Source: an uncultured virus (IMG/VR IMGVR_UViG_3300048609_000030) (Duplodnaviria; Heunggongvirae; Uroviricota; Caudoviricetes). Taken from it: 64,000 nucleotides of DNA. A program made the translations under genes and the position numbers. Shown here one piece after another: positions 3,925-35,887 of this stretch (position 1 is its first letter; the number at the start of each line of letters is the position of its first letter). The DNA lies in IMG/VR virus record IMGVR_UViG_3300048609_000030; one strand, written 5' to 3'. The notes under the pieces are model-generated. The model searched no databases. It was given only the letters and a program-made list of their open reading frames with translations, and was not told the origin of the DNA.

Positions 3925-4265
3925 ACGGGTGCGAGGTTACGACGGTATGGGGGCAGCGAGGCAGGGTAGTCGAGTGGACTCCGCTTTCCGCTGGTATGTG
4001 CGATGTGCTGATCGAAGTCGACGGTCACCACATCGCCGTGGCCAGCTCCGATCTGCGCCCGCTCGAAGGCGAATCACCACTTCCATCTCGACGAGAAGCG
4101 ATTGCAAAATCGAACGCAATCGCTCTGTGGTCGCTCAGAGCGATACGCGACCAACTCGTATCCGACTGGAACAAGCCCTGGCCTGGTGCTGAACACGGCA
4201 AGGCACTCGTGGGGATGTCCATTGATGGTGCAATAGCGGAACTGGAAGAGAAGACCAATACGTAA
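3921..4265 (+). CDS. Hypothetical protein
   Basis: 114-aa ORF, ATGA overlap. Confidence 0.55.
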   Translation: MNGCEVTTVWGQRGRVVEWTPLSAGMCDVLIEVDGHHIAVASSDLRPLEGESPLPSRREAIAKSNAIALWSLRAIRDQLVSDWNKPWPGAEHGKALVGMSIDGAIAELEEKTNT

Positions 4266-4432
4266 AGTCATCCTTTTGTTTGTGGTGTCCATCGCCCTCG
4301 TCATCAGCACGATTCCAACGTAGTTTTTCGCGGGGTGGGAGAGCACGTCACGTTAGTCAGTCGATGAGTAGCCGCAAGAAAACACAAGAAAACGGCACAT
4401 CTGTTCTGCGAGTGCTGAGAAATGTTCAGTTG

Positions 4433-5044
4433 ATGAGTAGCCGCAAGAAAACAGCACGTCGCACGCAGCGACGTACCAGAAAGACAGCCCGACAATGGGG
4501 CCGTATAGAAAAACGGCTCAAGAAGGCTGGGTATCAGTGCGTTGAGTACGTGTTAGCGCAACAAATGACAGAGGCTGGACTACCTGTTCGTTCGATTGTG
4601 ACGCGCGAAGAGCCGATACATCGCCTGTACTACGCGCCACCATGGTGTAACCGGTTGTTTGATCTTGCATGTCAAGCGGGGTGGCATGCACCACAGACTC
4701 CACTACACATACAGGTACCACCATCTGCGCGGGGACTAACATATAAGCAGCAGCAGGTGATACGACAACTGATAAAGACAGCAAGATGTGCCCCTGCTGT
4801 GGCTGAAGCTACCCTAATAGTACATGTGGCTCGTTACGCAGGCGCTTCGGGGACGGCCGCGGAAATCGCAGTTCAACGGCTCAAACGAGACACAACATTC
4901 CGAAACGCGCTTTGCGCGCTTGGCGCCCTCAAAGATGTAGCCCAAATGGCTAAATGCTTTGTTGAAGGGCAATGCGGCAGGCTACCTAAGTTGCCGTCGA
5001 ATGAGCATTACATAACGTCCATCGAAGAAGCGCTAGAGGCATAA
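4433..5044 (+). CDS. Hypothetical basic protein (start uncertain, 4364 or 4433)
   Basis: ORF with duplicated MSSRKKT start; TAATG overlap with next gene. Confidence 0.55.
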   Translation: MSSRKKTARRTQRRTRKTARQWGRIEKRLKKAGYQCVEYVLAQQMTEAGLPVRSIVTREEPIHRLYYAPPWCNRLFDLACQAGWHAPQTPLHIQVPPSARGLTYKQQQVIRQLIKTARCAPAVAEATLIVHVARYAGASGTAAEIAVQRLKRDTTFRNALCALGALKDVAQMAKCFVEGQCGRLPKLPSNEHYITSIEEALEA

Positions 5045-6246
5045 TGAAACGCATCTTGATTACCGCTGGCAGCGTCTACGCGAAGTTGGATGATAATAAG
5101 ATCGTCTCCAATCGCGCGCGTGGAACGTGGGCCATCGAGTTCGCAAAGTGGTTGGTTGGTTGGACCAAGCTGTACGCGCCGATACTACTGATACCAGACA
5201 CAGCCGAACACGAAACGCGTGCTCGGATTGCCGAGTACTCCTACCGAATTGACCTGTGTACCCACACAGGCTACGACGATTATCGTAACCAGTGTACCCA
5301 GCTGGCATCGGTAGTAGACGCGGCGATCATGGCGGCAGCTGTCACCAACTGGATTCCCGAGAAGCCGTTTGCAGGTAAGATGCCGACCGACACGGATCGG
5401 CAGCTCATTCCGTTCATTCTTGCTCCACGCGTCATCAACGAGATGAAGGCGCTCAACCCAAAGCTCACACTCGTTGGCTGCAAGCTTCTCTTCAACGGTG
5501 ATGAGGCGGCATTGGTGGATGCCGCGTACCATGTCGTTTTAGCAGCAAAATGTAATGCCGTAGTCGCTAACGACGCGAAGCTCGGCCTGCGGTCGAAGTA
5601 CGTTGTTCATCAAGACCGTGCAGTAACCACCTTCGAGAACGACTTCAAAGGGCTCTACGAGCACCTACGACTGATCATTGACGACGTTCACTATCAGACC
5701 GTGGTCGACAAGGCTGCAACGCCTTGCTTCGATGCTGGCATCGACATGTACGAGCCGATCGTCCGGCAGCACCGTCTCTTTGACCATCTTACCGACACAT
5801 ATCGAAGTGCTTTTGTCTCACGGCAAGACGGTGTTGACCGTGTATTGGGCGCGGTTGCTGTCAGACTACCCAACAACATCGGCTACCTCGTCTCTCCACG
5901 TGAGAAGGGTCAGAGGTTCTCTTCTCAGAACGCTGTGATCGTTACCAAAGTCAAAGATCGGATCGTCTACACAAGCGGTGGCAAGGCGTCACTCAACGCG
6001 CCTTTGCTGATTCGACACCTTGACGCGTACCCAAACGCCCGAGGTGTCGTTCATTACCACGGCGATTGGGACGGCTGGAAACAGGCGCTAGGCATTCCTG
6101 GCCTCGACGACACTGTGTATCCCGTTGTGACCTACGCACCGCCTGGAACCGCACGCGACAACGAACGAACTATCCCAGGCTCCAGCTACAAGATCCAAGG
6201 ACACGGCTGGATCATCGCTGTTGACATAGACGGCAGGCCTTTATGA
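5044..6246 (+). CDS. CoaB/DFP-like ligase domain fused to a class II aldolase/adducin-like domain
   Basis: N-terminal ILITAG..LDD.K.VSN..RG, AAIMAAAV, LVGCKL, VVAND match CoaB motifs; C-terminal GAVAVR..YLVSPR..GVVHYH..PPGT..GHG is aldolase-II-like. Confidence 0.75.
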   Translation: MKRILITAGSVYAKLDDNKIVSNRARGTWAIEFAKWLVGWTKLYAPILLIPDTAEHETRARIAEYSYRIDLCTHTGYDDYRNQCTQLASVVDAAIMAAAVTNWIPEKPFAGKMPTDTDRQLIPFILAPRVINEMKALNPKLTLVGCKLLFNGDEAALVDAAYHVVLAAKCNAVVANDAKLGLRSKYVVHQDRAVTTFENDFKGLYEHLRLIIDDVHYQTVVDKAATPCFDAGIDMYEPIVRQHRLFDHLTDTYRSAFVSRQDGVDRVLGAVAVRLPNNIGYLVSPREKGQRFSSQNAVIVTKVKDRIVYTSGGKASLNAPLLIRHLDAYPNARGVVHYHGDWDGWKQALGIPGLDDTVYPVVTYAPPGTARDNERTIPGSSYKIQGHGWIIAVDIDGRPL

Positions 6247-6797
6247 ACGAACATCGAGCCGACGGGCATTGGGCGGAGGCTATTTCCGAAACTGAGAAGG
6301 CGCTTCTAGTCGTCATTGGAGATGAGAATTACTGGATACCAAAGTCGGCGATCCATGGCAACTCTGAGGTATTTCGTGTGGGCGACGAGGGCAGACTCGT
6401 GTTGCACTCTTGGTTCGCTGGTAAGCTGGCGCCTGTAGACGATCAACTGTCCATCACAACTGACGGACGGCTAGCACCTCCAATCGGCGAAGGCAAACCG
6501 ATTCGGCTGACACTCGAACAGCGCAAACAGTTTGATGCTGTTGCCGAGAAAGCACGTGATCAACTAGCCGCCAAAGGACTCAATCGTAGTGCGCCAGACG
6601 GGCGATGTTTGGAGATTGTTTGTACTACATTCATGGCCTCGTTAGAAGCGCCGAACTTGAAACAAGAGCTGTTGGAGCTGTCCCAACGCCTGCACAACCT
6701 GGAAGCAGCTATTGAGACAATGTTGGGCAAAGACGCTGTAGCACAGTGTTTAGAGGGATACAGCCAACGTTTGCAGCACAGTGCCGAAGATAGATAG
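6243..6797 (+). CDS. Hypothetical phage protein
   Basis: ETEKALLV..WIPKS motif common in small phage proteins; ATGA overlap. Confidence 0.65.
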   Translation: MNEHRADGHWAEAISETEKALLVVIGDENYWIPKSAIHGNSEVFRVGDEGRLVLHSWFAGKLAPVDDQLSITTDGRLAPPIGEGKPIRLTLEQRKQFDAVAEKARDQLAAKGLNRSAPDGRCLEIVCTTFMASLEAPNLKQELLELSQRLHNLEAAIETMLGKDAVAQCLEGYSQRLQHSAEDR

Positions 6798-7492
6798 GAG
6801 GATCTAATGCCAGGACCGCAAGAAGGACCGACTAGGAGGTGTGATTGCTTGGGGTGCCTGTACCTCAAGTCAATTTCCCAGGGGCAACTCAACTACCCTC
6901 CCATGACCGAGGGACCGTGGTGGGCGTGTAGCCACCCGAGCTTGAGGGAGAGGTGCGTTGGACTCAGAACAACCACTGAGACTCCCGGATATTGCCCCTA
7001 CCTCCTTACACATGAGGAACGCCTCGCCGAACCAGGGTTGCTGACGGCGGTAACAGTGACGGCGTTCAAGGAGGATTGAAGAGCGAGATGAGCGTCGAGA
7101 AAACGCACCTGGAAATTGCTGCGCATCATCTACGGCAAGCTTCTGCAGAGTTGTTACTTGCGTCTGAGGTGTTGACCGATGACACTACACGCGGGGAGCT
7201 GGTCGGGATCAGTGCAACGATCGAGAGCATTGAGTGGCTAGTCGGTCGTTATGCACAAGCTGCGGGATAGATTCAGACTGTATTGTTGAGGAGGATCAAT
7301 GATCAGGTTCAATGTTGAAGGCGTACCGTCTACCCTCGCTACACTACTTCATGCTTGGAAAGGACGTGTGGAAGTCGTTGATCGATTTGGTCCAGGAGAT
7401 GTCAACGTAGAAATGCTAAATGAATATGCTGATGCTTTCCTAGACGCTGTTGAGGATGCTGGGCTGACGCACGTGATGTTGTAGGATACAGA

Positions 7493-7990
7493 ATGTTGCT
7501 TTTGTTGTCGATCTTCTTGGGTTTGTTGTTGGTAACCACCGCTGTTGAACGGTTGATTGCTATAAATGCACAAGTACGACAGTTCAGGCAGTACAAGGTA
7601 CTAGTAGCAGAGGATATCAGGCTGAATAGCGAGGCTGTATCGATAACCCCACGGGTCACGGATGTAGGAAACCGCAGTGTTCGCGTGGCAGTCTCGTTTC
7701 GTAACCAGACGGGATATCCAATCGTTCTCTGTGGCTTGATGATTGACTATCTTGTTGTGAAGGGCTCGATGGGCAACCTAGAGAGCATCGCACTCGACAA
7801 TAAGGAGCACGTCCTGCCAGCGAACCACCGTGACCCGTTGATAGTTTCTGCCACGTACTCACTACCAACAGGTGTCGACGTCGATGTCACAACGGGGCTA
7901 CGTGTTTCTGCGACGATGACTCGCCACCGCCTCAAATGGACAGCACTTACCGAGGCGTTTACGCAACTTGAAGTAAAGAGTATCCGATGA
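7493..7990 (+). CDS. Hypothetical membrane-anchored protein
   Basis: N-terminal hydrophobic helix then beta-rich domain. Confidence 0.55.
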   Translation: MLLLLSIFLGLLLVTTAVERLIAINAQVRQFRQYKVLVAEDIRLNSEAVSITPRVTDVGNRSVRVAVSFRNQTGYPIVLCGLMIDYLVVKGSMGNLESIALDNKEHVLPANHRDPLIVSATYSLPTGVDVDVTTGLRVSATMTRHRLKWTALTEAFTQLEVKSIR

Positions 7991-8823
7991 AGAATGCTAC
8001 CAAGATGGGATTAGCATGGCTGATGGACAAAGGTCTGAGCCCAGCCGATACAGTTGCGGCAGTGACCTACATGCTTGACCAAATCAGCAAACCAACAATG
8101 ATAGCCTCGTCCCCCAGAAGCCACATACCCTTCAGCTGCACAACCAAGACGTACGATCTGCTCTACGCTCGTTGGTTGGAAGGTGCTGAGAAACTAGTTC
8201 ACATGGCTAGGGTCAAGGAAGGAGATTTAGTACTTGACCTTTGCGGCGGTAGCGGCGTCGTATCGGAAGCCGCACTTCAAGCTGGTGCAGCGGTTGTTCT
8301 GCTCGACCTGAACCCACGAGCACGTCTCAACGTTGCTGCTATCAAGCAGAAGCTGCACGCACGACCAAAGCTGGCTGTTGTCCGAGGCCGTGCTGAAGAC
8401 GCTGTAAAGCTGCTTCATCAACCTGCAGCACAGGCGTGGTTGGCGCAGTACGACAAAGCGGGCACGGGAACCTTCGATAAGGTGATCTGCCGGCAGGCCA
8501 TCGGCTATCTCGATACGGAGAAGACATTCGAGGCGGTTGCGCAACTTCTTCGACCAGGTGGGATGTTTGTCTTCAACAACTTTATCAAGCCGCGTTGGCG
8601 CCTCTCTACCTATCAACACAACGAATCACGTTTTCTGGAAGCGTCTGCCTGTTTGGGGACACGTGTAGCACACCTTCAAGCGCGTTGGCCTATTGGTGTT
8701 GACGTAACAACGTTCCGATGGCACCCGCAAGATGTGTTGCTGCGTCAGCTGCGTACAAACTTCGTAGTCGAGTTGCGCAAACACAACCGATCGGTGTATT
8801 ACATCTGCCATAAACCGTTATGA
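7987..8823 (+). CDS. Class I SAM-dependent methyltransferase
   Basis: VLDLCGGSG motif I, LLDL, GRAED, FDKVIC, LLRPGG. Confidence 0.85.
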   Translation: MKNATKMGLAWLMDKGLSPADTVAAVTYMLDQISKPTMIASSPRSHIPFSCTTKTYDLLYARWLEGAEKLVHMARVKEGDLVLDLCGGSGVVSEAALQAGAAVVLLDLNPRARLNVAAIKQKLHARPKLAVVRGRAEDAVKLLHQPAAQAWLAQYDKAGTGTFDKVICRQAIGYLDTEKTFEAVAQLLRPGGMFVFNNFIKPRWRLSTYQHNESRFLEASACLGTRVAHLQARWPIGVDVTTFRWHPQDVLLRQLRTNFVVELRKHNRSVYYICHKPL

Positions 8824-8910
8824 CTGATGATCATTGTTTGATGTTACGTGCTGGGCTTTTCGTGCTGATTGTTGTTGTCGCGATACTGTTCGCAGATAAG
8901 TTGTGATGAG

Positions 8911-9777
<867 letters not shown>

Positions 9778-9792
9778 TGACTAGGAGCGTGC

Positions 9793-10314
9793 GTGAAGTA
9801 TCTCAGTGACGCGCGGTACCGTATGGCTCTTGTGAGAATGCGTCATCGCATCGCAACCGGCCTCATATTGAGCTACGAGGACAGTGAAACAATCGGCGAA
9901 AAGGGTACAAAGTGCTCTTGGGGTATGTGCTCAGAAGACGTCGAGCAGTGGCCAGATGCAGGTGATCACCTGTTTCCGGTAGTCTTCATGGATCGTGGAC
10001 GCGTCTCTGTTGTACGTCGCGCAGATCAACCGTGTCCTCTAGAAATCGCTGCACTTAGCAAGCCTTCTGAGGGTTGCTTCTACCGTTGTCGAGTGTTTCA
10101 ACAACATCTCGGTGCTTTGCCAACACGAGACGCCGCCTTACGACTCTACAACAGTCGTATTCAGGCTGTTGGTGATCACCTTGAAGTTTGTGGCTGCGAC
10201 AATGTTGGTGAGATAGTCGATCCTGTAGGTGGCAAGAAGAAGTTGCCTTGTCCTACGTGTCGCCGCGAAGACTATTCTGTGTGGCGGTTGTCTTATAAAA
10301 GAGAATGGACATGA
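9793..10314 (+). CDS. Cys-rich hypothetical protein
   Basis: AGGAG RBS, GTG start, CSWGMC/GCFYRC/CPTC. Confidence 0.6.
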   Translation: MKYLSDARYRMALVRMRHRIATGLILSYEDSETIGEKGTKCSWGMCSEDVEQWPDAGDHLFPVVFMDRGRVSVVRRADQPCPLEIAALSKPSEGCFYRCRVFQQHLGALPTRDAALRLYNSRIQAVGDHLEVCGCDNVGEIVDPVGGKKKLPCPTCRREDYSVWRLSYKREWT

Positions 10315-11075
10315 CCAAAGAACTACCACCGTGGCGACCTTCAACACTGGCAAAGATGACAATACCAGAGCTTCTACGCCTCAAACGAGCGTTAGAAGGC
10401 AGCGAAGGCTTGCTCGTCGACGGAGCGATCTACAAGTGTGTCGTCGACGTTCTTTGGGACCGCGCTGCAACCTCTGTGTCAAAGTGGCCAGTTACAAAAC
10501 ATGAGATGGGATACAACCTCATCAGCTTCTGCATAGACGCTGTGAAGTGGACTTGCCCAAAGTGTAAACAGGATAACTGGTTCGACCCGTGTCATTGTGG
10601 GCACCCAAGAGGCTATCCATTACTCGGACCTGACGATCCTTGGCATCAACCTGTACGCCGATTACGCCCTCGCAGCCGTGTTGCATCATCGCAAACACTT
10701 GGTGATTTTGCGGGTGATTGGGGTGCAGAATGGTATGAATGCTCTTGTGGAAACCGAGACGGTGATGCTTTCGGCAAGAGTCACGCAATCGGTCGTCAAT
10801 GGCGAGCTGAAAACGAACCTGGCGCCTGGCTGCGAAGCAATTGGCGTATAGCCAAAAAGCTCCACTTGCGAGACGCAAACAACAAGCCGTTCAATCCAAA
10901 GAAGCCTGTCTGGCTGATTTGCAGATACGCCGATGGGCTAGACGATCGTGAACACGCTCTCAACAGAGTGTATGCAGGAAGCGCGTCAAGTCGTGCTGAG
11001 TTTCACTGTATTTGTGGTAGCTCAACATGTGATGACAAGGCCAAACAAATTCCTGTTGACGACGATGAAATATGA
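10311..11075 (+). CDS. Cys-rich hypothetical protein (Zn-binding)
   Basis: CPKC, CHCG, CSCG, CICG motifs. Confidence 0.6.
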   Translation: MTKELPPWRPSTLAKMTIPELLRLKRALEGSEGLLVDGAIYKCVVDVLWDRAATSVSKWPVTKHEMGYNLISFCIDAVKWTCPKCKQDNWFDPCHCGHPRGYPLLGPDDPWHQPVRRLRPRSRVASSQTLGDFAGDWGAEWYECSCGNRDGDAFGKSHAIGRQWRAENEPGAWLRSNWRIAKKLHLRDANNKPFNPKKPVWLICRYADGLDDREHALNRVYAGSASSRAEFHCICGSSTCDDKAKQIPVDDDEI

Positions 11076-11575
11076 TACTGCTGATGTGGCCAGCAACTCA
11101 AGCTGACCAAGCAAGTCAGGAGATGAAGACTATGACCAACAGAGAATTCGCTGCGACCATCGAGGCCATCAAGGTTGAGCCGGACGAGGAGAAGCGCCAC
11201 TCGCTGCTAGGTGGATTGGTTGATGACTTTGGGTACATCGAGGCGTTGGTATGTGCCTTCCCCAAGAACGAGCTGAAAGCCTTGAAGGTTGAGGGCGAGT
11301 TGGTGCTCTGGAAGAGTAACTGGTGGAAACAGGTGGTGAAGCGGTGACTAACGAGAGCAAGCGTACTAGGGCTTGTAGAGCTTTCCTGGAAGGGTTAATG
11401 AGCGGTGCATCGTTCAACTATACAGCTGCACCAATACGGCTTCCTCGAATGCCTAAACTGGTCGTCACCAAACGCGCGCCTGACTATTTTCAGGTGGTCG
11501 GCGACGAGTTGCGAATTGCGTTAGCGGCAGTTGCAAAACAGCATCCCAAACGATAGTGTAATACGGAGCTGACGA

Positions 11576-13921
11576 ATGAAGACAAAAGACAAGTATGCAG
11601 TGTTTCCGCGTTTCACCGCAGGTGAAGCTGGTGCGGCCGATCGCGAGACAGCTCTTCACGTCTTACAGGCTGAACAAACACACATCGACAACGCTCTCAG
11701 TGGGGGACTTGGTGCCGCCGCGCGTGCCCAGGTAAAGCTACAAGGCACGCGGTTCATCGTCGTCTCTATGCGATCAGCCAAACAGGGATGGAGAGTCACT
11801 GACCTGATGGACCACACTCGTCACTTGTGGCCACACCGGCTCAAGTGTCCAACGTGTACGACAAGTTGTAAATGTCGGCACGGCAAAATCGTGCCGCATG
11901 ATCATGAGGGCACGCCATGCGACGGTGGTGACCACTACGTCGGGCACGAACTGGATGCAGCTATTATCTCGGCCGCTGAGACGTACGGTGCGGAGCAGCC
12001 GACCCAAAACGCTGACATCGTGATGAAAGCCTTGGGAAAAGGTGCAGCGTACCGCAACAAGCTCACCGAAATCGAACGAGAACGGCGTGAGCGAGAGGCC
12101 ACCCTACTCAACGCGGTAGGTGATGTGGCAATCATCAACGAACAGATCAAGGCGCTCGAAGACGAACAAGAGGTGTTGCAGAAGCGGATGAAGCAAGCGA
12201 AAAGCGGCAAAACGAAAGCCGAGCGATCAGAGCCTGATCCAGCTGACGTTCAACGTGCCCGCGCTATCAAGGAGTTGTTGAAGCCTCTTCGAGCACGACG
12301 CAAAGAGATCCGTACCCACGTTAGAAGCGCCGTCGTCCAGGACGAGATCAAGGTGATTCAGGATACGTACAAGGAGGAATATCGAGAAGCGCGCGCGAAG
12401 CGTGATGTGTATTGGGGCACAGGCGGAATCGTTGAAGAAGCAGCAGACCAAAGCTTCAAAACAGTCAAGAAGGGGCCTCCCAAGTTTGTTCCCTTCAGGG
12501 GACAAGGTGCAATTGCTGTACAGATTCAACATGGTGTTCCGTGGCGGGACCTGTTTGGCACCACCAACCAACAAGTCCGTATCGATCCGATAGATCCTAG
12601 CGCGTGGACTGGTTCTCGGGCTGTACGACGGCGTGCTTGCAAAACTGTGATGCATCTTCGTGTCTCGTCGGACGCGGACCGCAAACCAGTTTGGGCATCT
12701 TTTCCTTTCTGGATGCACCGCCCACCACCAGACCGCGCGGTCGTGAAAAAGATCAAGGCGATACGACGCCGCGACGGTCACCGTTTTCGTTGGAGTATTG
12801 TCGTCACGTACGATGTGCCCCGCGACGATGTTGTGCATACGGACGTACCAGACAACCGTGCCGAGTGGGTTGGAATCGATGTTGGGTGGCGCGCGTTCCG
12901 TGAGGACAAGGCTACGTCCCAAGATCGTCCGCAGTGGACAGAAGACGACAAGCTGACGCGAGAAGAAGGTGTTACCTACGCTACTGCGTGTCGGCTGGCT
13001 GACGTCGGACGGTTGGAAAAGGCATTCAATTTGTTGGCCTCGAATCCTAAAGCGTTGAAGCGCCTAAAGGCTAGGATGTCGGGGCCACACTCTATCCGTG
13101 TCGCTTGTTGGCACGGATCTGATGGCGCAAGTGGAGAGCTGGTCCTCGACCCTAGTTACAGTCGTGCTAGAAAGCGTATGGAGGACTTGGAGTCGACGAC
13201 GAAGAAAAACTTCAATGAATGCGTGCCCAAGATTGTTGCTTGGCTCGAACAGAATCCAGTCTCAAGTAACTTCCTAATCGCTGTCAAACCGCTTTTCCGT
13301 ACAGCAGGTGACTCTAAACCCGATGCTGCACCGTTTACTCAAGAAGTGATGACAGCTCGGCTCAAGGAGTGGGAGGCACCTTCACGCCTTCACGTGCTTC
13401 GAGACTTGTGGTATTACTTTGTGATCGACAATGATGAAGAGGTTTGGCAGGTGTTGAATGATTGGCATCACCAAGACAAACACCTCGTCGATTGGATACG
13501 AAGCCTGAAAAGGAAGGCACGCGGTCGGCGGCGAGAGTTGTACCGATTGTTCGCTGCTGAGATGGGCCGCAAGTACAAAATCTTCTACATCGAGGATTTT
13601 GAACTACCTGATGTCATAGAGAAGCCGCCTGTCGAGGAAGAGAAAGAACACCGTAACAAGCTGGCAGAGCAAAACCGCCGCACTGCTGGCGTCAGCGTCC
13701 TTCGTGACGCACTCAAGAACGTTGGTCGCACGTGTGTAGTAGAATACATTGCTGTAGCCGCCAACGAGACTACACGGCAGTGTGCAGAGTGTGGTAGCAT
13801 CGAGACGTGGGATCAGGCTAAATACGTAATGCACACTTGCAGTGGGTGTGGAGCAACGTGGGACCAAGACTTCAACGCCGGCAAGAACATCGGCGAACGT
13901 GGTGCCAGCTCCACTAATTAG
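11576..13921 (+). CDS. cas12: Type V CRISPR effector, TnpB-derived, Cas12m/V-U1-like, with N-terminal Zn-finger extension
   Basis: RuvC-I VGIDVGWR (D435), RuvC-II IEDF (E673), CAEC/CSGC Zn ribbon (C736-C758), RuvC-III WDQDFNAGKNI (D765); YG..P..YRNKLTEIER and GAIAVQIQ resemble V-U1 motifs; 176 bp upstream of a CRISPR array. Confidence 0.9.
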   Translation: MKTKDKYAVFPRFTAGEAGAADRETALHVLQAEQTHIDNALSGGLGAAARAQVKLQGTRFIVVSMRSAKQGWRVTDLMDHTRHLWPHRLKCPTCTTSCKCRHGKIVPHDHEGTPCDGGDHYVGHELDAAIISAAETYGAEQPTQNADIVMKALGKGAAYRNKLTEIERERREREATLLNAVGDVAIINEQIKALEDEQEVLQKRMKQAKSGKTKAERSEPDPADVQRARAIKELLKPLRARRKEIRTHVRSAVVQDEIKVIQDTYKEEYREARAKRDVYWGTGGIVEEAADQSFKTVKKGPPKFVPFRGQGAIAVQIQHGVPWRDLFGTTNQQVRIDPIDPSAWTGSRAVRRRACKTVMHLRVSSDADRKPVWASFPFWMHRPPPDRAVVKKIKAIRRRDGHRFRWSIVVTYDVPRDDVVHTDVPDNRAEWVGIDVGWRAFREDKATSQDRPQWTEDDKLTREEGVTYATACRLADVGRLEKAFNLLASNPKALKRLKARMSGPHSIRVACWHGSDGASGELVLDPSYSRARKRMEDLESTTKKNFNECVPKIVAWLEQNPVSSNFLIAVKPLFRTAGDSKPDAAPFTQEVMTARLKEWEAPSRLHVLRDLWYYFVIDNDEEVWQVLNDWHHQDKHLVDWIRSLKRKARGRRRELYRLFAAEMGRKYKIFYIEDFELPDVIEKPPVEEEKEHRNKLAEQNRRTAGVSVLRDALKNVGRTCVVEYIAVAANETTRQCAECGSIETWDQAKYVMHTCSGCGATWDQDFNAGKNIGERGASSTN

Positions 13922-14097: not shown

Positions 14098-17000
14098 GGA
14101 TCAACTACTGCTCAACGCTTTACCTGTTGAGACGACACGGATCCGGTGGCGTTCGACGTGGACAAGCTGGATCAACTACTGCTCAACGCTTTACCTGTTG
14201 AGACAGATCATTGTCATCGGTATATGTACCCCATCCAAGGGATCAACTACTGCTCAACGCTTTACCTGTTGAGACACGTACGCATGCACGCCGATAGTCA
14301 CGTTGTCGCAGGGATCAACCACTGCTCAACGCTTTGCTTGTTGAGACGACCAGGGGCCAACAATGGCGTCGGCTTCGACCGAGGATCAACCACTGCTCAA
14401 CGCCTTACCTGTTGAGACCTTTGTATGTGTTGAGCATCCGCAGCTCGAAGACAGGGGATCAACCAGACAGAACCTCTTACCACTCACCCGCTGGGAGGTT
14501 GAGCGGGATCAACTGCTGCTCAACGCCTTACCTGTTGAGACGCAAACTACGGTCACGCTGGGCCGGCATTCGTCGTTGGGGATCAACCACTGCTCAACGC
14601 CTTACCTGTTGAGACTTGTCACGATCCTCGTGACCCCTGGCCCTTGGACCGAGGGATCAACCACTGCTCAACGCCTTACCTGTTGAGACGGGCAGCGCCG
14701 GGGAATTTGTCCCTGGTCTACCACACAGGATCAACCACTGCTCAACGCCTTACCTGTTGAGACGCGAAGCTGCTGGGCAAGTACGTCCTTCTTCATCGAG
14801 GATCAACCACTGCTCAACGCTTTACCTGTTGAGACTGGCGGAATGTGGATCTCTACCGCAATGTCCTCCATGGATCAACGTTGCTCAACGCTTTACTTGT
14901 TGAGACATGCTGAGTTGGGGCAAGCCACTTGACGCGAAGGTAGGATCAACTGCTGCTCAACGCCTTACCTGTTGAGACCTAGCGAGTTCATCACAGTGAA
15001 CCCGTCGATGAGGCGGGATCAACTGCTGCTCAACGCCTTACCTGTTGAGACGCTTCTGAGGTTGGGGGTTGGCGGTGAGTGACCAAGGGGATCAACTACT
15101 GCTCAACGCCTTACCTGTTGAGACGCGAGTTCACGGTCCTTCGCCACGAGCTGGCGCTTTACTTGTTGAGACGCGGCACGCGATACGTCGACGAGCGAGA
15201 CCGGATCAACCACTGCTCAACGCCTTACTTGTTGAGACCGACTATTCGACGGACCCTGTAGCTGAGTTGTCTCTAGATCAACTACTGCTCAACGCCTTAC
15301 TTGTTGAGACAAGACAGCAACGCGCCTGATCTCTACAACACCATCAAGATCAACTACTGCTTAACGCCTTACTGCCCTGTGGATCAACTACTGCTCAACG
15401 CTTTACCTGTTGAGACGTCGTAGGCGAACCTGCTACCAAGTCCAACCGATACAGGATCAACCGCTGCTCAACGCTTTACCTGTTGAGACATCTCCCATGT
15501 TCTGAAGTGCCGGACTGTGCAGTCGGAGGATCAACTACTGCTCAACGCTTTACCTGTTGAGACAGAAGAAGGGGACTATCTGCTCGAATGCATACGGCTC
15601 GGATCAACTACTGCTCAACGCTTTACTTGTTGAGACAGGGGACCTCCGCAGACACCTGCGCACCCTGACGACGGATCAACTACTGCTCAACGCCTTGTAT
15701 ATGTTGAGATCTCCTGTCTTGCGGCGTCGGCTGAAACAACTGTTCAACACCTTGTTGACTCAACGCTTTACTGTTGCTCAACGCTTTACCTGTTGAGACG
15801 TAGGATGCGCCGGTACTCGTCCATCTTGACATCGGGGATCACTGTTGCTCAACGCTTTACCTGTTGAGACGAGCGCATGAATTGGGTCGCCGAGTATTGG
15901 GGCGCCGGATCAACTTTACCTGTTGAAACATCGTCATGGACCAGCGCGGTTTCGGATCAAGCACTACTCAACGTTTTACCTGTTGAGACACCCAAAGGCT
16001 ACGCGGTCAGTCACTGCAAAAGCAGGGATCAACCACTGCTCAACGCCTTACTTGTTGAGACGCGATCGAGTAGGGCGGATCGGCGACGACTAGGTCGGAT
16101 CAACCACTGCTCAACGTTTTACTTGTTGAGACAGCCAACCCCAATCCCTCCAAAGGCGGACGACCGCAGGATCAACCACTGCTCAACGCCTTACTTGTTG
16201 AGACCAGCACGGTTTGGCGACGAGAAGACCGGCAGGGCCGAGGATCAACCACTGCTCAACGCCTTACTTGTTGAGACATCACCGAATCGCGCCCACCACT
16301 GCTCAACTGCTTTACCTGTTGAGACGATTGCCTCCTTGGCGGCTTTAAACTCCGACTGCTCAACGCTTTACCTGTTGAGACCCGAAAGAGGAGCAGCTAT
16401 CCGACACACTTCCCGACGGATCAACTACTGCTCAACGCCTTACCTGTTGAGATAGATGATCACACGCCGCAACCTCTAGGAGAGCGTGTAGATTAACCAC
16501 TGCTCAACGCCTTACCTGTTGAGACATGCAGAGTGAAGGGGATCGCCTCTGCGACACCTGTGGATCAACCACTGCTCAACGCCTTACCTGTTGAGACTAC
16601 GCGCGGCTCCTGCTGATCTAGTTGTCACACCAGATCAACTACTAGCAGGTATCGGTACGGTGGTGGATCAACAACTGCTCAACGCCCTTAAGTTGAGACG
16701 GCTCATCGAAGACGCACGTTCAACAACCACTCAACGTTCTATCTGTTGAGACACCTTGACGGGCTCGCAGCTAGTTAGTACCTGTCGAGATAAACAGTCA
16801 CAACTGCTCAACGTCCTACTAGTTGAGACCGGTTCCGCTCAGGTTGTGAGTGAAATTGAGAGGATCAACAACCACTCGACGCCCTACCTGTCGAGACACC
16901 AACCGCCGCACTCAAACGAGAGCCTGGCAGACGGACTACGAATCGAGATCGTCGTCAACTTTGAGCAAACAGCTGCTCGACGCTTTACAAGTCGAGATGA

Positions 17001-34141: not shown

Positions 34142-35887
34142 CTACTCCCCGTAGAAGAATGAGTCACTAGCGTAGTAGAGACCGTTGCGCTTTTCGATCA
34201 AGCTTGTGGTTTTGAGTTTCGACAAGTAGTTCGCAAAGGTACTGCTCGTGGTGGATTGTCCTACCTGTTCGGCGACCGCATCCCGTGTTAGACCGGCTGG
34301 GTAGGCATCAATGAAGGTTCTGAGAATAGTCTTTGAGCTACCTGGAAGTCTAGGAGCCCAAAGCGCGTACAATTCTTCGGTGGTTGGTGGCGTCAAACTC
34401 GAACTCGTGGTTGATATTGCACTCAAACCCAACTCGGTAAGTTGAAATGCGCTTCCTCTGCCTTCGATGTGTCCACCTGTACGCAACGCTGAGAGGTAGT
34501 TCGCGAAGGTCGAGCTGCGCGGGCTGAATCCTGCCAAAGTAGATACTTGGTTGCGGGACAACGACTTGGGATGTAGCGCAGCCAACGCTTCGAGGATGCG
34601 CAACGGTCCGCGTCCAAGTTTGCTGGTTCCATTTGTGGACTTTGAACGAGGCGTTTGAGGTGGTTGAACAGCTCGTGGTGGTTGGGTGTTTCTCAACGGT
34701 TGGGGTACAGCTTTTGATTTGGGTACCACAGCACGGGCGGCGTCGATCGTAGAAGCCAACGCGACGAATGCGTTCTTCGTCTCGTCGTTCAGTTGTTGCC
34801 ACTTCGCAGCTGCTTTCTTTGTTACATCCTCGTACTTCTGTAGGACGTGTTTCAGACGTTCAACATCTTCAGCTTTGAGTACCGATACCTCGATACGCTC
34901 AACCTCAACAGTCTTTTGTTGCAGCAGTACTTCGAGCTGTTGGATCTTGCGGTCGCGCTCGATCACCTGTTGTCGTAGTTGCTTAGGGTCGTTTTGCTTC
35001 GCGGCCTCGATTGTTGAGGCCATCGCTTTCGAGATCTCGGTAAGGTCAACAGGCGCGAGTTGTTGCTGCTTTACTTGCTTACCCACGGTCGGTGTAGCTG
35101 ACGTATCGGCTGTTTTCTTCTGTCCGATCTTTACCTTTTGGTAGACCTCAAGCCACTGCGGTGACCAGACAATGGCTGTGCCCTGGGGAAGCTTAGCCAA
35201 GATCGACGCATCACCGCTTATGATGCCCTTCTCGGCAATCCATCCGTCGATTGCTTTACGTTCGTGCGGGCCAACTGTTTGGAATGCAAACAGACACTCA
35301 GTCTGGTTCAAGACGTCTTTGTGGACCTTCTGAGGACGTTGCGAAAGAAGTGAGATGCCGATTCCGTAGTTACGTCCAAGAAGAGCTAAATCGCTGACGG
35401 CGCCTAGAAGTCGTTCGTCACCACTGTGCATTTGTTGCGGAATGAAAAATTGACTTTCTTCTATCACGATGTGTAGCGGCGATTGTGCACGCTTCTTGCG
35501 ATGAAAAAGTTGCTCCGCAAAATCTGTTGCAAACTGCCGCCGCTGGTTCTTGCGGAAGTGAGAGACATCCAACACGATCGAAGTTCCAGTGTCGACAATG
35601 AAGTCGGCAACAATCGCACCGCCTGTCGGCTCTAATGGGATGTCACCTTGCGCGCCGCCAAGAACTGGAATCGGATAACCAGGTCCGGTGCCTGGTGTGC
35701 GGAGGCCGTACCAATTTCCCACAGGATCCAGGACGACGACTTGTGCACCAACGTCAAGCATCTCCTCGACCAGTTTGCCTGCCGCGAAGCTCTTTCCCGC
35801 GCCTCGACGCCCTATGAAGGCGAACGTCTGCGTGACCGCGTCAAGCGGCAGTGCAAGAGTCGCAGACAGGTGAAGCTTTCTCGTCAT
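34142..35887 (-). CDS. HerA/DUF87-like P-loop ATPase with coiled coil and two C-terminal wHTH repeats
   Basis: Walker A GRRGAGKS, VVLDPVG, Walker B IVIEES, GRNYGI..SQRP; repeated SSTFANYLS. Confidence 0.85.
   Translation of the reverse strand: MTRKLHLSATLALPLDAVTQTFAFIGRRGAGKSFAAGKLVEEMLDVGAQVVVLDPVGNWYGLRTPGTGPGYPIPVLGGAQGDIPLEPTGGAIVADFIVDTGTSIVLDVSHFRKNQRRQFATDFAEQLFHRKKRAQSPLHIVIEESQFFIPQQMHSGDERLLGAVSDLALLGRNYGIGISLLSQRPQKVHKDVLNQTECLFAFQTVGPHERKAIDGWIAEKGIISGDASILAKLPQGTAIVWSPQWLEVYQKVKIGQKKTADTSATPTVGKQVKQQQLAPVDLTEISKAMASTIEAAKQNDPKQLRQQVIERDRKIQQLEVLLQQKTVEVERIEVSVLKAEDVERLKHVLQKYEDVTKKAAAKWQQLNDETKNAFVALASTIDAARAVVPKSKAVPQPLRNTQPPRAVQPPQTPRSKSTNGTSKLGRGPLRILEALAALHPKSLSRNQVSTLAGFSPRSSTFANYLSALRTGGHIEGRGSAFQLTELGLSAISTTSSSLTPPTTEELYALWAPRLPGSSKTILRTFIDAYPAGLTRDAVAEQVGQSTTSSTFANYLSKLKTTSLIEKRNGLYYASDSFFYGE

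Follow-up and report, generated by a model that had tools for sequence, protein, structure and literature searches.

The window analysed here is a 64,000-nucleotide (nt) stretch of DNA from an uncultured virus of the Caudoviricetes (IMG/VR record IMGVR_UViG_3300048609_000030), and our subject is one plus-strand open reading frame (ORF) in it, at positions 11,576 to 13,921, which lies just ahead of a CRISPR array. By homology this ORF is a Cas12m (type V-M) effector, with a new architecture: the complete Cas12m core is preceded by a module of about 125 residues which, to judge from its relatives, is a whole and independent phage protein family joined end to start to the effector. Cas12m is a branch of Cas12 that has been reported to bind rather than cut DNA (PMC10442227; preprint 10.64898/2026.03.26.714355), and a domain fused to it would therefore be delivered to an address chosen by RNA. 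The features on which the argument rests are the following.

11565..11568, plus strand: ribosome-binding site GGAG, with a 7-nt spacer to the ATG (read directly)
11576..13921, plus strand: fused ORF of 781 residues (read directly)
11576..11578, plus strand: start codon ATG of the fused protein, the first start past an in-frame TGA
11576..11836, plus strand: N-subdomain of the module (residues 1-87), of alpha/beta type, predicted as strand-strand-helix-helix-three strands, with conserved P11, R12, G16, A26, E33, G43, G46, G57, W72 and D76
11837..11950, plus strand: zinc-ribbon-like subdomain (residues 88-125), ending with the YVG motif, with putative ligands C91, C94, H108 and C115
11846..11848, 11855..11857, 11897..11899 and 11918..11920: codons of the putative zinc ligands C91, C94, H108 and C115, in this order
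11951..11974, plus strand: junction (residues 126-133, LDAAIISA), where the module's own tail runs into the native N-terminal tail of Cas12m
11975..13921, plus strand: complete Cas12m core (residues 134-781 plus stop), with RuvC residues D435, E673 and D765 and TNB cysteines C736, C739, C755 and C758

Architecture, translation and selection

In a phmmer search of PDB sequences, the 577-residue chain 23vw_A matched the ORF with an E-value of 2.5e-68 over query stretches 120-443 and 507-772, its alignment opening at query residue 120 opposite chain residue 7, and Cas12m2 (8hhl/8hio), 8pm4 and 23vu matched at about 1e-15 to 1e-16 (4.7e-16 for 8hhl). The Pfam TNB domain PF07282, a C-terminal zinc ribbon (CxxC...CxxC) of the TnpB/Cas12f type, was found above its cut-off at residues 711-772 (E-value 2.4e-7). 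From residue ~127 to residue 781 the protein shares with the solved Cas12m proteins an alignment over WED, REC, RuvC and TNB. However, the four solved proteins (23vw_A, 577 residues; Cas12m2 8hhl/8hio, ~597; 8pm4, 614; UnCas12m4a 23vu, 614) all start at the WED strand, whereas the window protein, at 781 residues, has 125 extra N-terminal residues and an insertion of 65 residues. It thus departs from the compact architecture of 580-620 residues beginning at the WED strand, and this departure is one of architecture, not of homology. The core also differs in its catalytic residues from what has been described for other members: at the level of the abstract, the catalytic triad of Cas12m2 is called non-canonical (PMC10442227), and PmCas12m is said to lack the conserved DED residues (preprint 10.64898/2026.03.26.714355), while the window protein has D/E/D at 435, 673 and 765. 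Given these three residues, cleavage of DNA by the window protein may be possible.

The module is joined to this core directly. Homology to the stand-alone relatives of the module ends at YVGHE, at about E125, and in P0003, the nearest Cas12m without a module, which is 47% identical and comes from a 4,123-nt contig, residue D2 aligns to D127 of the window protein, so that no added linker lies between the two. Such an end-to-start junction is what the loss of a stop codon between two adjacent genes on the same strand would give. The 90% protein cluster of the fused protein holds four variants, each of exactly 781 residues, and 13 DNA runs from eight studies carry the stretch or part of it. Contigs from runs X2, X3 and X9, which belong to three other studies, cover both the module and the junction, and over this interval they show a single indel, of one base at 11574, 5' of the ATG. 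The lineage represented by runs X2 and X3, hereafter the second lineage, is without this base, which shortens the spacer between GGAG and ATG from 7 to 6 nt and keeps the start. On the evidence of these contigs, the fusion is not an assembly artefact.

The initial annotation had proposed that translation begins at an in-frame ATG preceded by GGAG, and both elements lie where it had placed them. An in-frame TGA at 11570-11572, just 5' of the ATG, makes the ATG at 11576 the first possible start of the frame. Over codons 1-125 the coding frame alone is open, the other five frames having 3-7 stops each, and the proportion of GC at the three codon positions is much alike in the module (0.64/0.49/0.56) and in the core (0.62/0.44/0.56). 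In-frame start codons occur at 1, 9, 65, 78, 84 and 106, and the next ones only at 149-150, inside the core. Because there is no ATG, GTG or TTG between codons 106 and 149, the Cas12m core could not be translated separately. Within the module no promoter-like or terminator-like site was found. Homology to the family starts at residues 6-7, which is where the stand-alone members begin as well.

Selection was assessed from the listed nucleotide differences between the window and the second lineage, which are ~4% apart in DNA, over a 1,201-nt stretch. Six differences in this stretch are unlisted; since all amino-acid differences are already known from the protein alignment, any of them that falls inside the ORF is synonymous. 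The two parts of the gene gave the following counts.

Module, codons 1-125: 15 synonymous and 5 non-synonymous differences; ratio of non-synonymous to synonymous change (pN/pS) 0.10; binomial p 1.5e-6
Core, codons 126-341: 11 synonymous and 2 non-synonymous differences; pN/pS 0.055; binomial p 5.2e-6

If the same 20 module changes are read in the other two plus-strand frames, the ratio of synonymous to non-synonymous becomes 3:17 and 2:18. Five amino acids differ in the module, at positions 15, 21, 113, 118 and 120, none of them an invariant position of the family. In codons 11-40 there are nine synonymous and two non-synonymous differences, and the nine synonymous changes indicate that translation begins upstream of these codons. 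Together with the conservation of the frame, the synonymous change from codon 11 onward points to translation from the ATG at 11576, under selection.

These results bear on the possibility, raised with the initial annotation, that translation starts downstream. It could do so, for example, at the ATG of codon 78 or the GTG of codon 106, which would leave the module outside the mature effector, or the upstream part could be a dead remnant. In-frame ATG or GTG codons are indeed present at 65, 78 and 106, and the one at codon 78 has a distant GGAGAG with an 11-nt spacer. However, the synonymous changes in codons 11-40 lie upstream of all of these starts, the ATG at 11576 lies at a suitable distance from its GGAG and coincides with the N-terminus of the stand-alone members, and the residues conserved in the family are kept. 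We regard a downstream start or a dead remnant as very improbable. Conversely, we hold it to be very likely, as one joint statement, that two complete proteins are truly fused here in frame and end to start, that residues 1-125 belong as a full-length member to a family of small, uncharacterised phage proteins of ~135 residues, that the fused protein is translated from the ATG at 11576, and that both halves are under purifying selection.

The module and its stand-alone family

Searched alone with phmmer against 1.84 billion representative proteins, residues 1-135 retrieved 42 proteins at an E-value of at most 0.001 and 12 at an E-value of at most 1e-10. Leaving out P0002, which is the same protein with 98% identity, and two translated repeats (P0021 and P0049), 39 usable representatives of the family remain; they are 93-202 residues long, mostly 130-150, and the best has an E-value of 8e-17. 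Homology spans these stand-alone proteins from their first residues to a C-terminal (Y/F)VG motif, after which only 2-12 residues remain. The module thus resembles the stand-alone family (P0009-P0048, and the viral loci L001-L012) over its full length, with 26-39% identity, shared invariant residues, the P-R-Y/F-T-x-G motif and the YVG motif, and differs from it at its end: the stand-alone members, which are free-standing small proteins, end shortly past YVG, whereas the fused copy runs on into Cas12m. Among the 1.84 billion representatives, P0002 was the one further long protein to contain the module. The extra module described in the initial annotation is therefore real and far from what chance would give, with its size corrected from ~130 to ~125 residues.

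Alignment A2 holds 19 sequences, the window's own copy and 18 stand-alone relatives, and fifteen residues are invariant in all 19: P11, R12, G16, A26, E33, G43, G46, G57, W72, D76, C91, C94, G103, H108 and C115. The cysteines of CPTC (C91 and C94), the histidine after a proline (H108) and C115, from which a zinc finger had been proposed in the initial annotation, are found at those residues, as is AETYGAEQP at residues 134-142, and the C-x2-C...H...C set coincides with invariant columns of the family. Most family members also keep C100. Against a family profile made from A2, which includes the window's own copy, the window ORF matched with an E-value of 7.8e-44 over profile positions 1-133. 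In the 18 nearest relatives, 35 columns reach a conservation of 80% or more; the fused copy keeps 26 of them and departs in nine (F13, E17, A18, A21, V53, T58, S67, D79 and H102); three of the departures, A53V, L58T and T79D, are at columns invariant in these relatives. The zinc subdomain carries a net charge of +2 to +8 in all 18 stand-alone members of A2 and of 0 in the fused copy.

AlphaFold2, run with A2 on residues 1-135, predicted a compact module with a mean predicted local distance difference test score (pLDDT) of 94.7 and a predicted template modelling score of 0.82; residues 1-87 alone, with an alignment of 37 sequences, reached a pLDDT of 95.8. The prediction places two short strands first, then two helices and three strands, and last the small strands of the ribbon. 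The comparison with Foldseek that had been suggested for the module was carried out, and against solved structures neither the whole module (best Foldseek E-value 0.45, best VIA Z 2.8) nor the N-subdomain alone (0.63 and 3.4) gave a significant match. The top VIA rows, among them two bacterial toxin chains and PipX (Z 2.3-3.4), were dropped as being within noise. Among the predicted viral structures of BFVD there were local matches over 38 columns to small zinc-ribbon-like proteins of mycobacteriophages, at an E-value of only 0.3; the ESM Atlas gave a best feature score of 0.85, to unnamed clusters and below the useful range; and the family profile found nothing below an E-value of 0.12 among PDB sequences. 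Scans of the module and of 19-40 family members with Pfam, PHROGs, NCBIfam and PADLOC assigned no family, and 4 of 40 members had weak matches to Pfam zinc ribbons (e.g. PF12760, best E-value 6e-4). The predicted fold is thus recognisable in no solved structure, a missing match being no proof of a new fold. The CasPR anti-CRISPRs (preprint 10.64898/2026.02.23.707548) were considered and set aside as unrelated to the module, since they are described with CapR and AP2 domains and a different cysteine pattern.

The family distribution was surveyed with a degenerate DNA pattern for the motif PRYTPGSPA; the pattern is narrow, so the counts are those of pattern hits and not of the true spread. It matched 12 viral contigs, 10 of which encode a true member by profile search; two of these 10 loci (L001 and L004) are identical in sequence, and six of the 10 members are on contigs of 140-424 kb. 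Of 113 hits in the collection of prokaryote genomes, by comparison, one was a true member, and its 9-kb contig belongs to a metagenome-assembled genome. On viral contigs, seven of the 10 members match the N-subdomain only, and because members without the zinc part are thus common on phage contigs, the conserved core of the family is not the zinc ribbon. In each of nine viral records searched whole, the family profile had exactly one match. The genes next to the module in the window showed no similarity to those of the family-bearing loci when examined for synteny, and a search of viral contigs with P0001 found no relative. At one locus (L005, 4827-5711) the N-subdomain stands at the C-terminal end of a 294-residue ORF, a second and different domain architecture.

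Distribution of the fusion and its phage setting

The initial annotation had regarded the module as an accessory domain foreign to Cas12m and TnpB, and had asked whether homologues share the fusion or whether such a domain is standard in the subtype. The search of homologues found the fusion only in the 98% identical variant, and in the other Cas12m proteins examined the module is absent. It is missing from the four solved Cas12m proteins (577-614 residues) and from six of seven sequence homologues, all of which start at the core, the seventh being P0002; and in all 40 Cas12m-like metagenome loci it was found neither fused nor nearby. Upstream frames were checked in the 31 of these 40 loci in which the match reaches the start of the core profile and is clear of contig ends. 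At 23 of the 31 at most 13 residues can precede the core, and at the other eight there are longer open frames of 28-79 residues before it. Of the six among these eight that were read (L015, L021, L033, L036, L038 and L039), five show a clear start closer to the core. At a further locus (L016, 1-2529) the frame of a Cas12m-like ORF runs on without a stop upstream of the core, for 226 codons or more, as far as the contig edge; this extension is not of the module family, a likely start, MSSTRVYRYGLL, is right at the core, and since the DNA is GC-rich the open frame may be due to chance.

Virus Rctr197k (KX853510.1) is the only GenBank phage with a relative, a gene of 622 residues with 27.7% identity that aligns from residue 137 on. 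This gene has no module, and a family profile search of the whole 197-kb record found no family member. As in the window, to the extent of its scanned ORFs, the phage genome holds an effector and an array with no adaptation genes. In the GenBank record (L173 in our set) the Cas12m-like gene is annotated 'similar to transposase' beside an annotated CRISPR (3935-5803 and 5837-7351); this phage Cas12m-like gene has thus gone unrecognised in GenBank, where the record was placed years ago, and it would predate the claim to the first phage Cas12m made in a preprint of September 2026. That preprint gives the distinction to MvCas12m of myxophage MV-1, a protein of 610 residues with eight spacers (10.64898/2026.09.14.751636). 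MvCas12m, too, is an effector with an array and no adaptation genes, and the portion of its description available to us mentions no extra domain. Of the five family-bearing phage records, two have weak TnpB-like matches, at 28 kb and 114 kb from the family gene. Neither a Cas12m carrying a fused N-terminal domain nor the small-protein family was found described in full-text searches of the main texts of open-access papers and bioRxiv. On present sequences, the fusion is confined to one phage lineage.

Two further features belong to the same locus.

12902..13096, plus strand: internal insertion of ~65 residues (residues 443-507), seen as a gap against 23vw_A (alignment A3)
14098..16897, plus strand: CRISPR array with 33 recognisable 36-nt repeats

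The insertion comes directly after the first RuvC motif (IDVGWR), and it is common to P0003 only, being found neither in 23vw_A nor in P0004-P0008. In one 98% identical variant of the protein (P0051) the fourth TNB cysteine, C758, is replaced by W and H102 by N, which could be a sequencing error or a damaged copy. The array starts 177 nt past the cas12m stop codon; its spacers are mostly 35-38 nt long, 23 of them being of standard length, there are at least three repeat variants, and nine intervals of 55-119 nt contain degenerate or partial repeats. No Cas1, Cas2 or Cas4 was found by Pfam among 68 ORFs (15 + 53) of the window, which is part of the phage. The spacers had no match (at most seven mismatches, 10-mer seed) in the rest of the window or in any of the fetched loci, and the array had no megablast match among 50,697 GenBank phage records.

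By PHROG and Pfam matches the window encodes, among others, the large subunit of a terminase on the minus strand (34142-35887), ThyX, an M23 endolysin-like protein, a NUDIX protein and endonucleases of the HNH and LAGLIDADG types; many of its ORFs match no family, and there is no tRNA gene in its 64 kb. The element is probably a large phage, because a related contig, which carries one member (P0050) of the cluster of the fused protein, reaches 243,706 nt. Upstream of the fused gene, the genes at 2116-2514, 5044-6246, 7987-8823 and 8869-9777 include a small potassium-channel-like protein (Ion_trans_2), a DFP (CoaB-like) protein, an S-adenosylmethionine methyltransferase and an ORF with a run of ~17 aspartates, and the ORFs at 9793-10314 and 10305-11075 have CxxC motifs and no match to the module family.

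Possible roles of the module and engineered counterparts

We tentatively favour a reading in which the module is a cargo, or passenger, on an RNA-guided DNA binder and carries the family's own activity to sites set by the CRISPR RNA (crRNA). In Cas12m2, Met4 of the WED domain is described as stacking on the first base pair of the heteroduplex, with the duplex of the protospacer adjacent motif (PAM) lying between WED and REC1 (PMC10442227). If the window protein is built alike, the module, linked to the WED domain's first beta-strand through ~9 residues, would be held beside the PAM-side DNA of the target selected by the crRNA. There the N-subdomain could exert the activity of the family, most likely the binding of nucleic acid or of a phage or host partner, and we propose the invariant R12, E33, W72 and D76 as the binding surface. 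In the stand-alone relatives the basic zinc ribbon would probably give a generic anchoring to nucleic acid, which in the fusion would be replaced by the programmable anchoring of Cas12m. On this reading a domain of 125 residues can sit at the N-terminus of Cas12m beside the PAM side, and the fusion would be the first functional lead for a family of large phages, namely an action on DNA, or close to it, in company with an RNA-guided binder. In a stronger form, which we think unlikely, Cas12m would serve as an RNA-guided label of the address and the N-subdomain, with its so far unseen fold, would be an active cargo. The cargo could be an enzyme, or could recruit polymerase, nuclease or modification machinery, and the phage would direct it to chosen sites in the DNA of its host or of rival phages. 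If true, this would be nature's own tool of the type that joins an effector to a nuclease-dead Cas protein (dCas), and it would open a first way to learn what this family, conserved in large phages, does.

Several points weigh against the cargo reading. The neighbours of the family gene in the nine viral loci are almost all hypothetical proteins, so that the context gives no hint of what the family does. The stand-alone family is unlinked to Cas12m elsewhere, whether at the 40 Cas12m-like loci, in KX853510 or in the five family-bearing phage records, and there is hence no independent sign of cooperation between the two. The position of the module relative to the DNA is extrapolated from a different Cas12m. 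The changes of the fused copy at conserved columns could mark a new function or the partial loss of an old one, and the purifying selection on the module could equally reflect an ancestral role independent of Cas12m.

The main alternative, possible if rather doubtful, is that the fusion is a passive one, in which the cas12m-CRISPR cassette landed directly downstream of the family gene of the phage, or the two genes were simply neighbours, and the stop codon was lost; the halves would then do unrelated jobs in one polypeptide and would not cooperate. The junction, with no added linker and natural tails meeting at residues 125-127, would fit such an event, and so would the fact that the family is otherwise never found with Cas12m; moreover, other records have one family match each and the fused copy is the sole one in the 64-kb window, which means that it may be the phage's ortholog. 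However, both partners are complete and the frame is kept across two lineages ~4% apart in DNA. The core lacks a separate start, so that no Cas12m molecule can be made without the module, and a bulky domain placed ~9 residues away from the strand next to the heteroduplex's first base pair would be expected to have an effect. In addition, the changes at family-invariant positions and the lost positive charge of the zinc subdomain suggest adaptation to the fusion.

The other two alternatives give the module a role in the effector itself. As an extra DNA clamp, the zinc-ribbon module would be an acquired domain that interacts with the PAM or binds flanking DNA, altering or strengthening recognition and stabilising a transcriptional roadblock. 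The module is attached close to the WED strand, by homology at the R-loop's PAM-proximal end, the zinc subdomains of its stand-alone relatives are basic, and larger Cas12 proteins are described as having gained PAM-interacting domains (PMC10442227). Yet the zinc subdomain of the fused copy has no net charge, the part of the family conserved in most viral members is the N-subdomain and not the ribbon, and the module has no structural likeness to known DNA-binding folds, all of which makes a clamp distinctly unlikely. We give even less weight to a module for oligomerisation or regulation, which would dimerise Cas12m so that two guides act together, or would gate its activity by a phage or host signal. 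The module is predicted to be small, compact and independently folding, and two Cas12m2 molecules are listed in the binary complex, so that self-association is not foreign to Cas12m (PMC10442227).

Under the cargo reading, the fusion would be a natural counterpart of engineered dCas-effector fusions, and its maintenance under selection suggests that phages have already explored the effector-on-dCas designs that are otherwise built by hand. The closest designs are made from Cas12m itself. Residues 2-13 of PmCas12m are reported to be deletable, and effector domains appended to the protein to work (preprint 10.64898/2026.03.26.714355). The epigenome editors PmCas12m-VPR and xCas12m (same preprint) and the Cas12m base editors (PMC11013384), as described there, share with the window protein a non-Cas domain on a terminus and an N-terminal tail that tolerates change. 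They differ from it in that the engineered proteins are man-made and carry effector domains that are known, whereas the fusion in the window is natural and its added domain has no recognisable fold.

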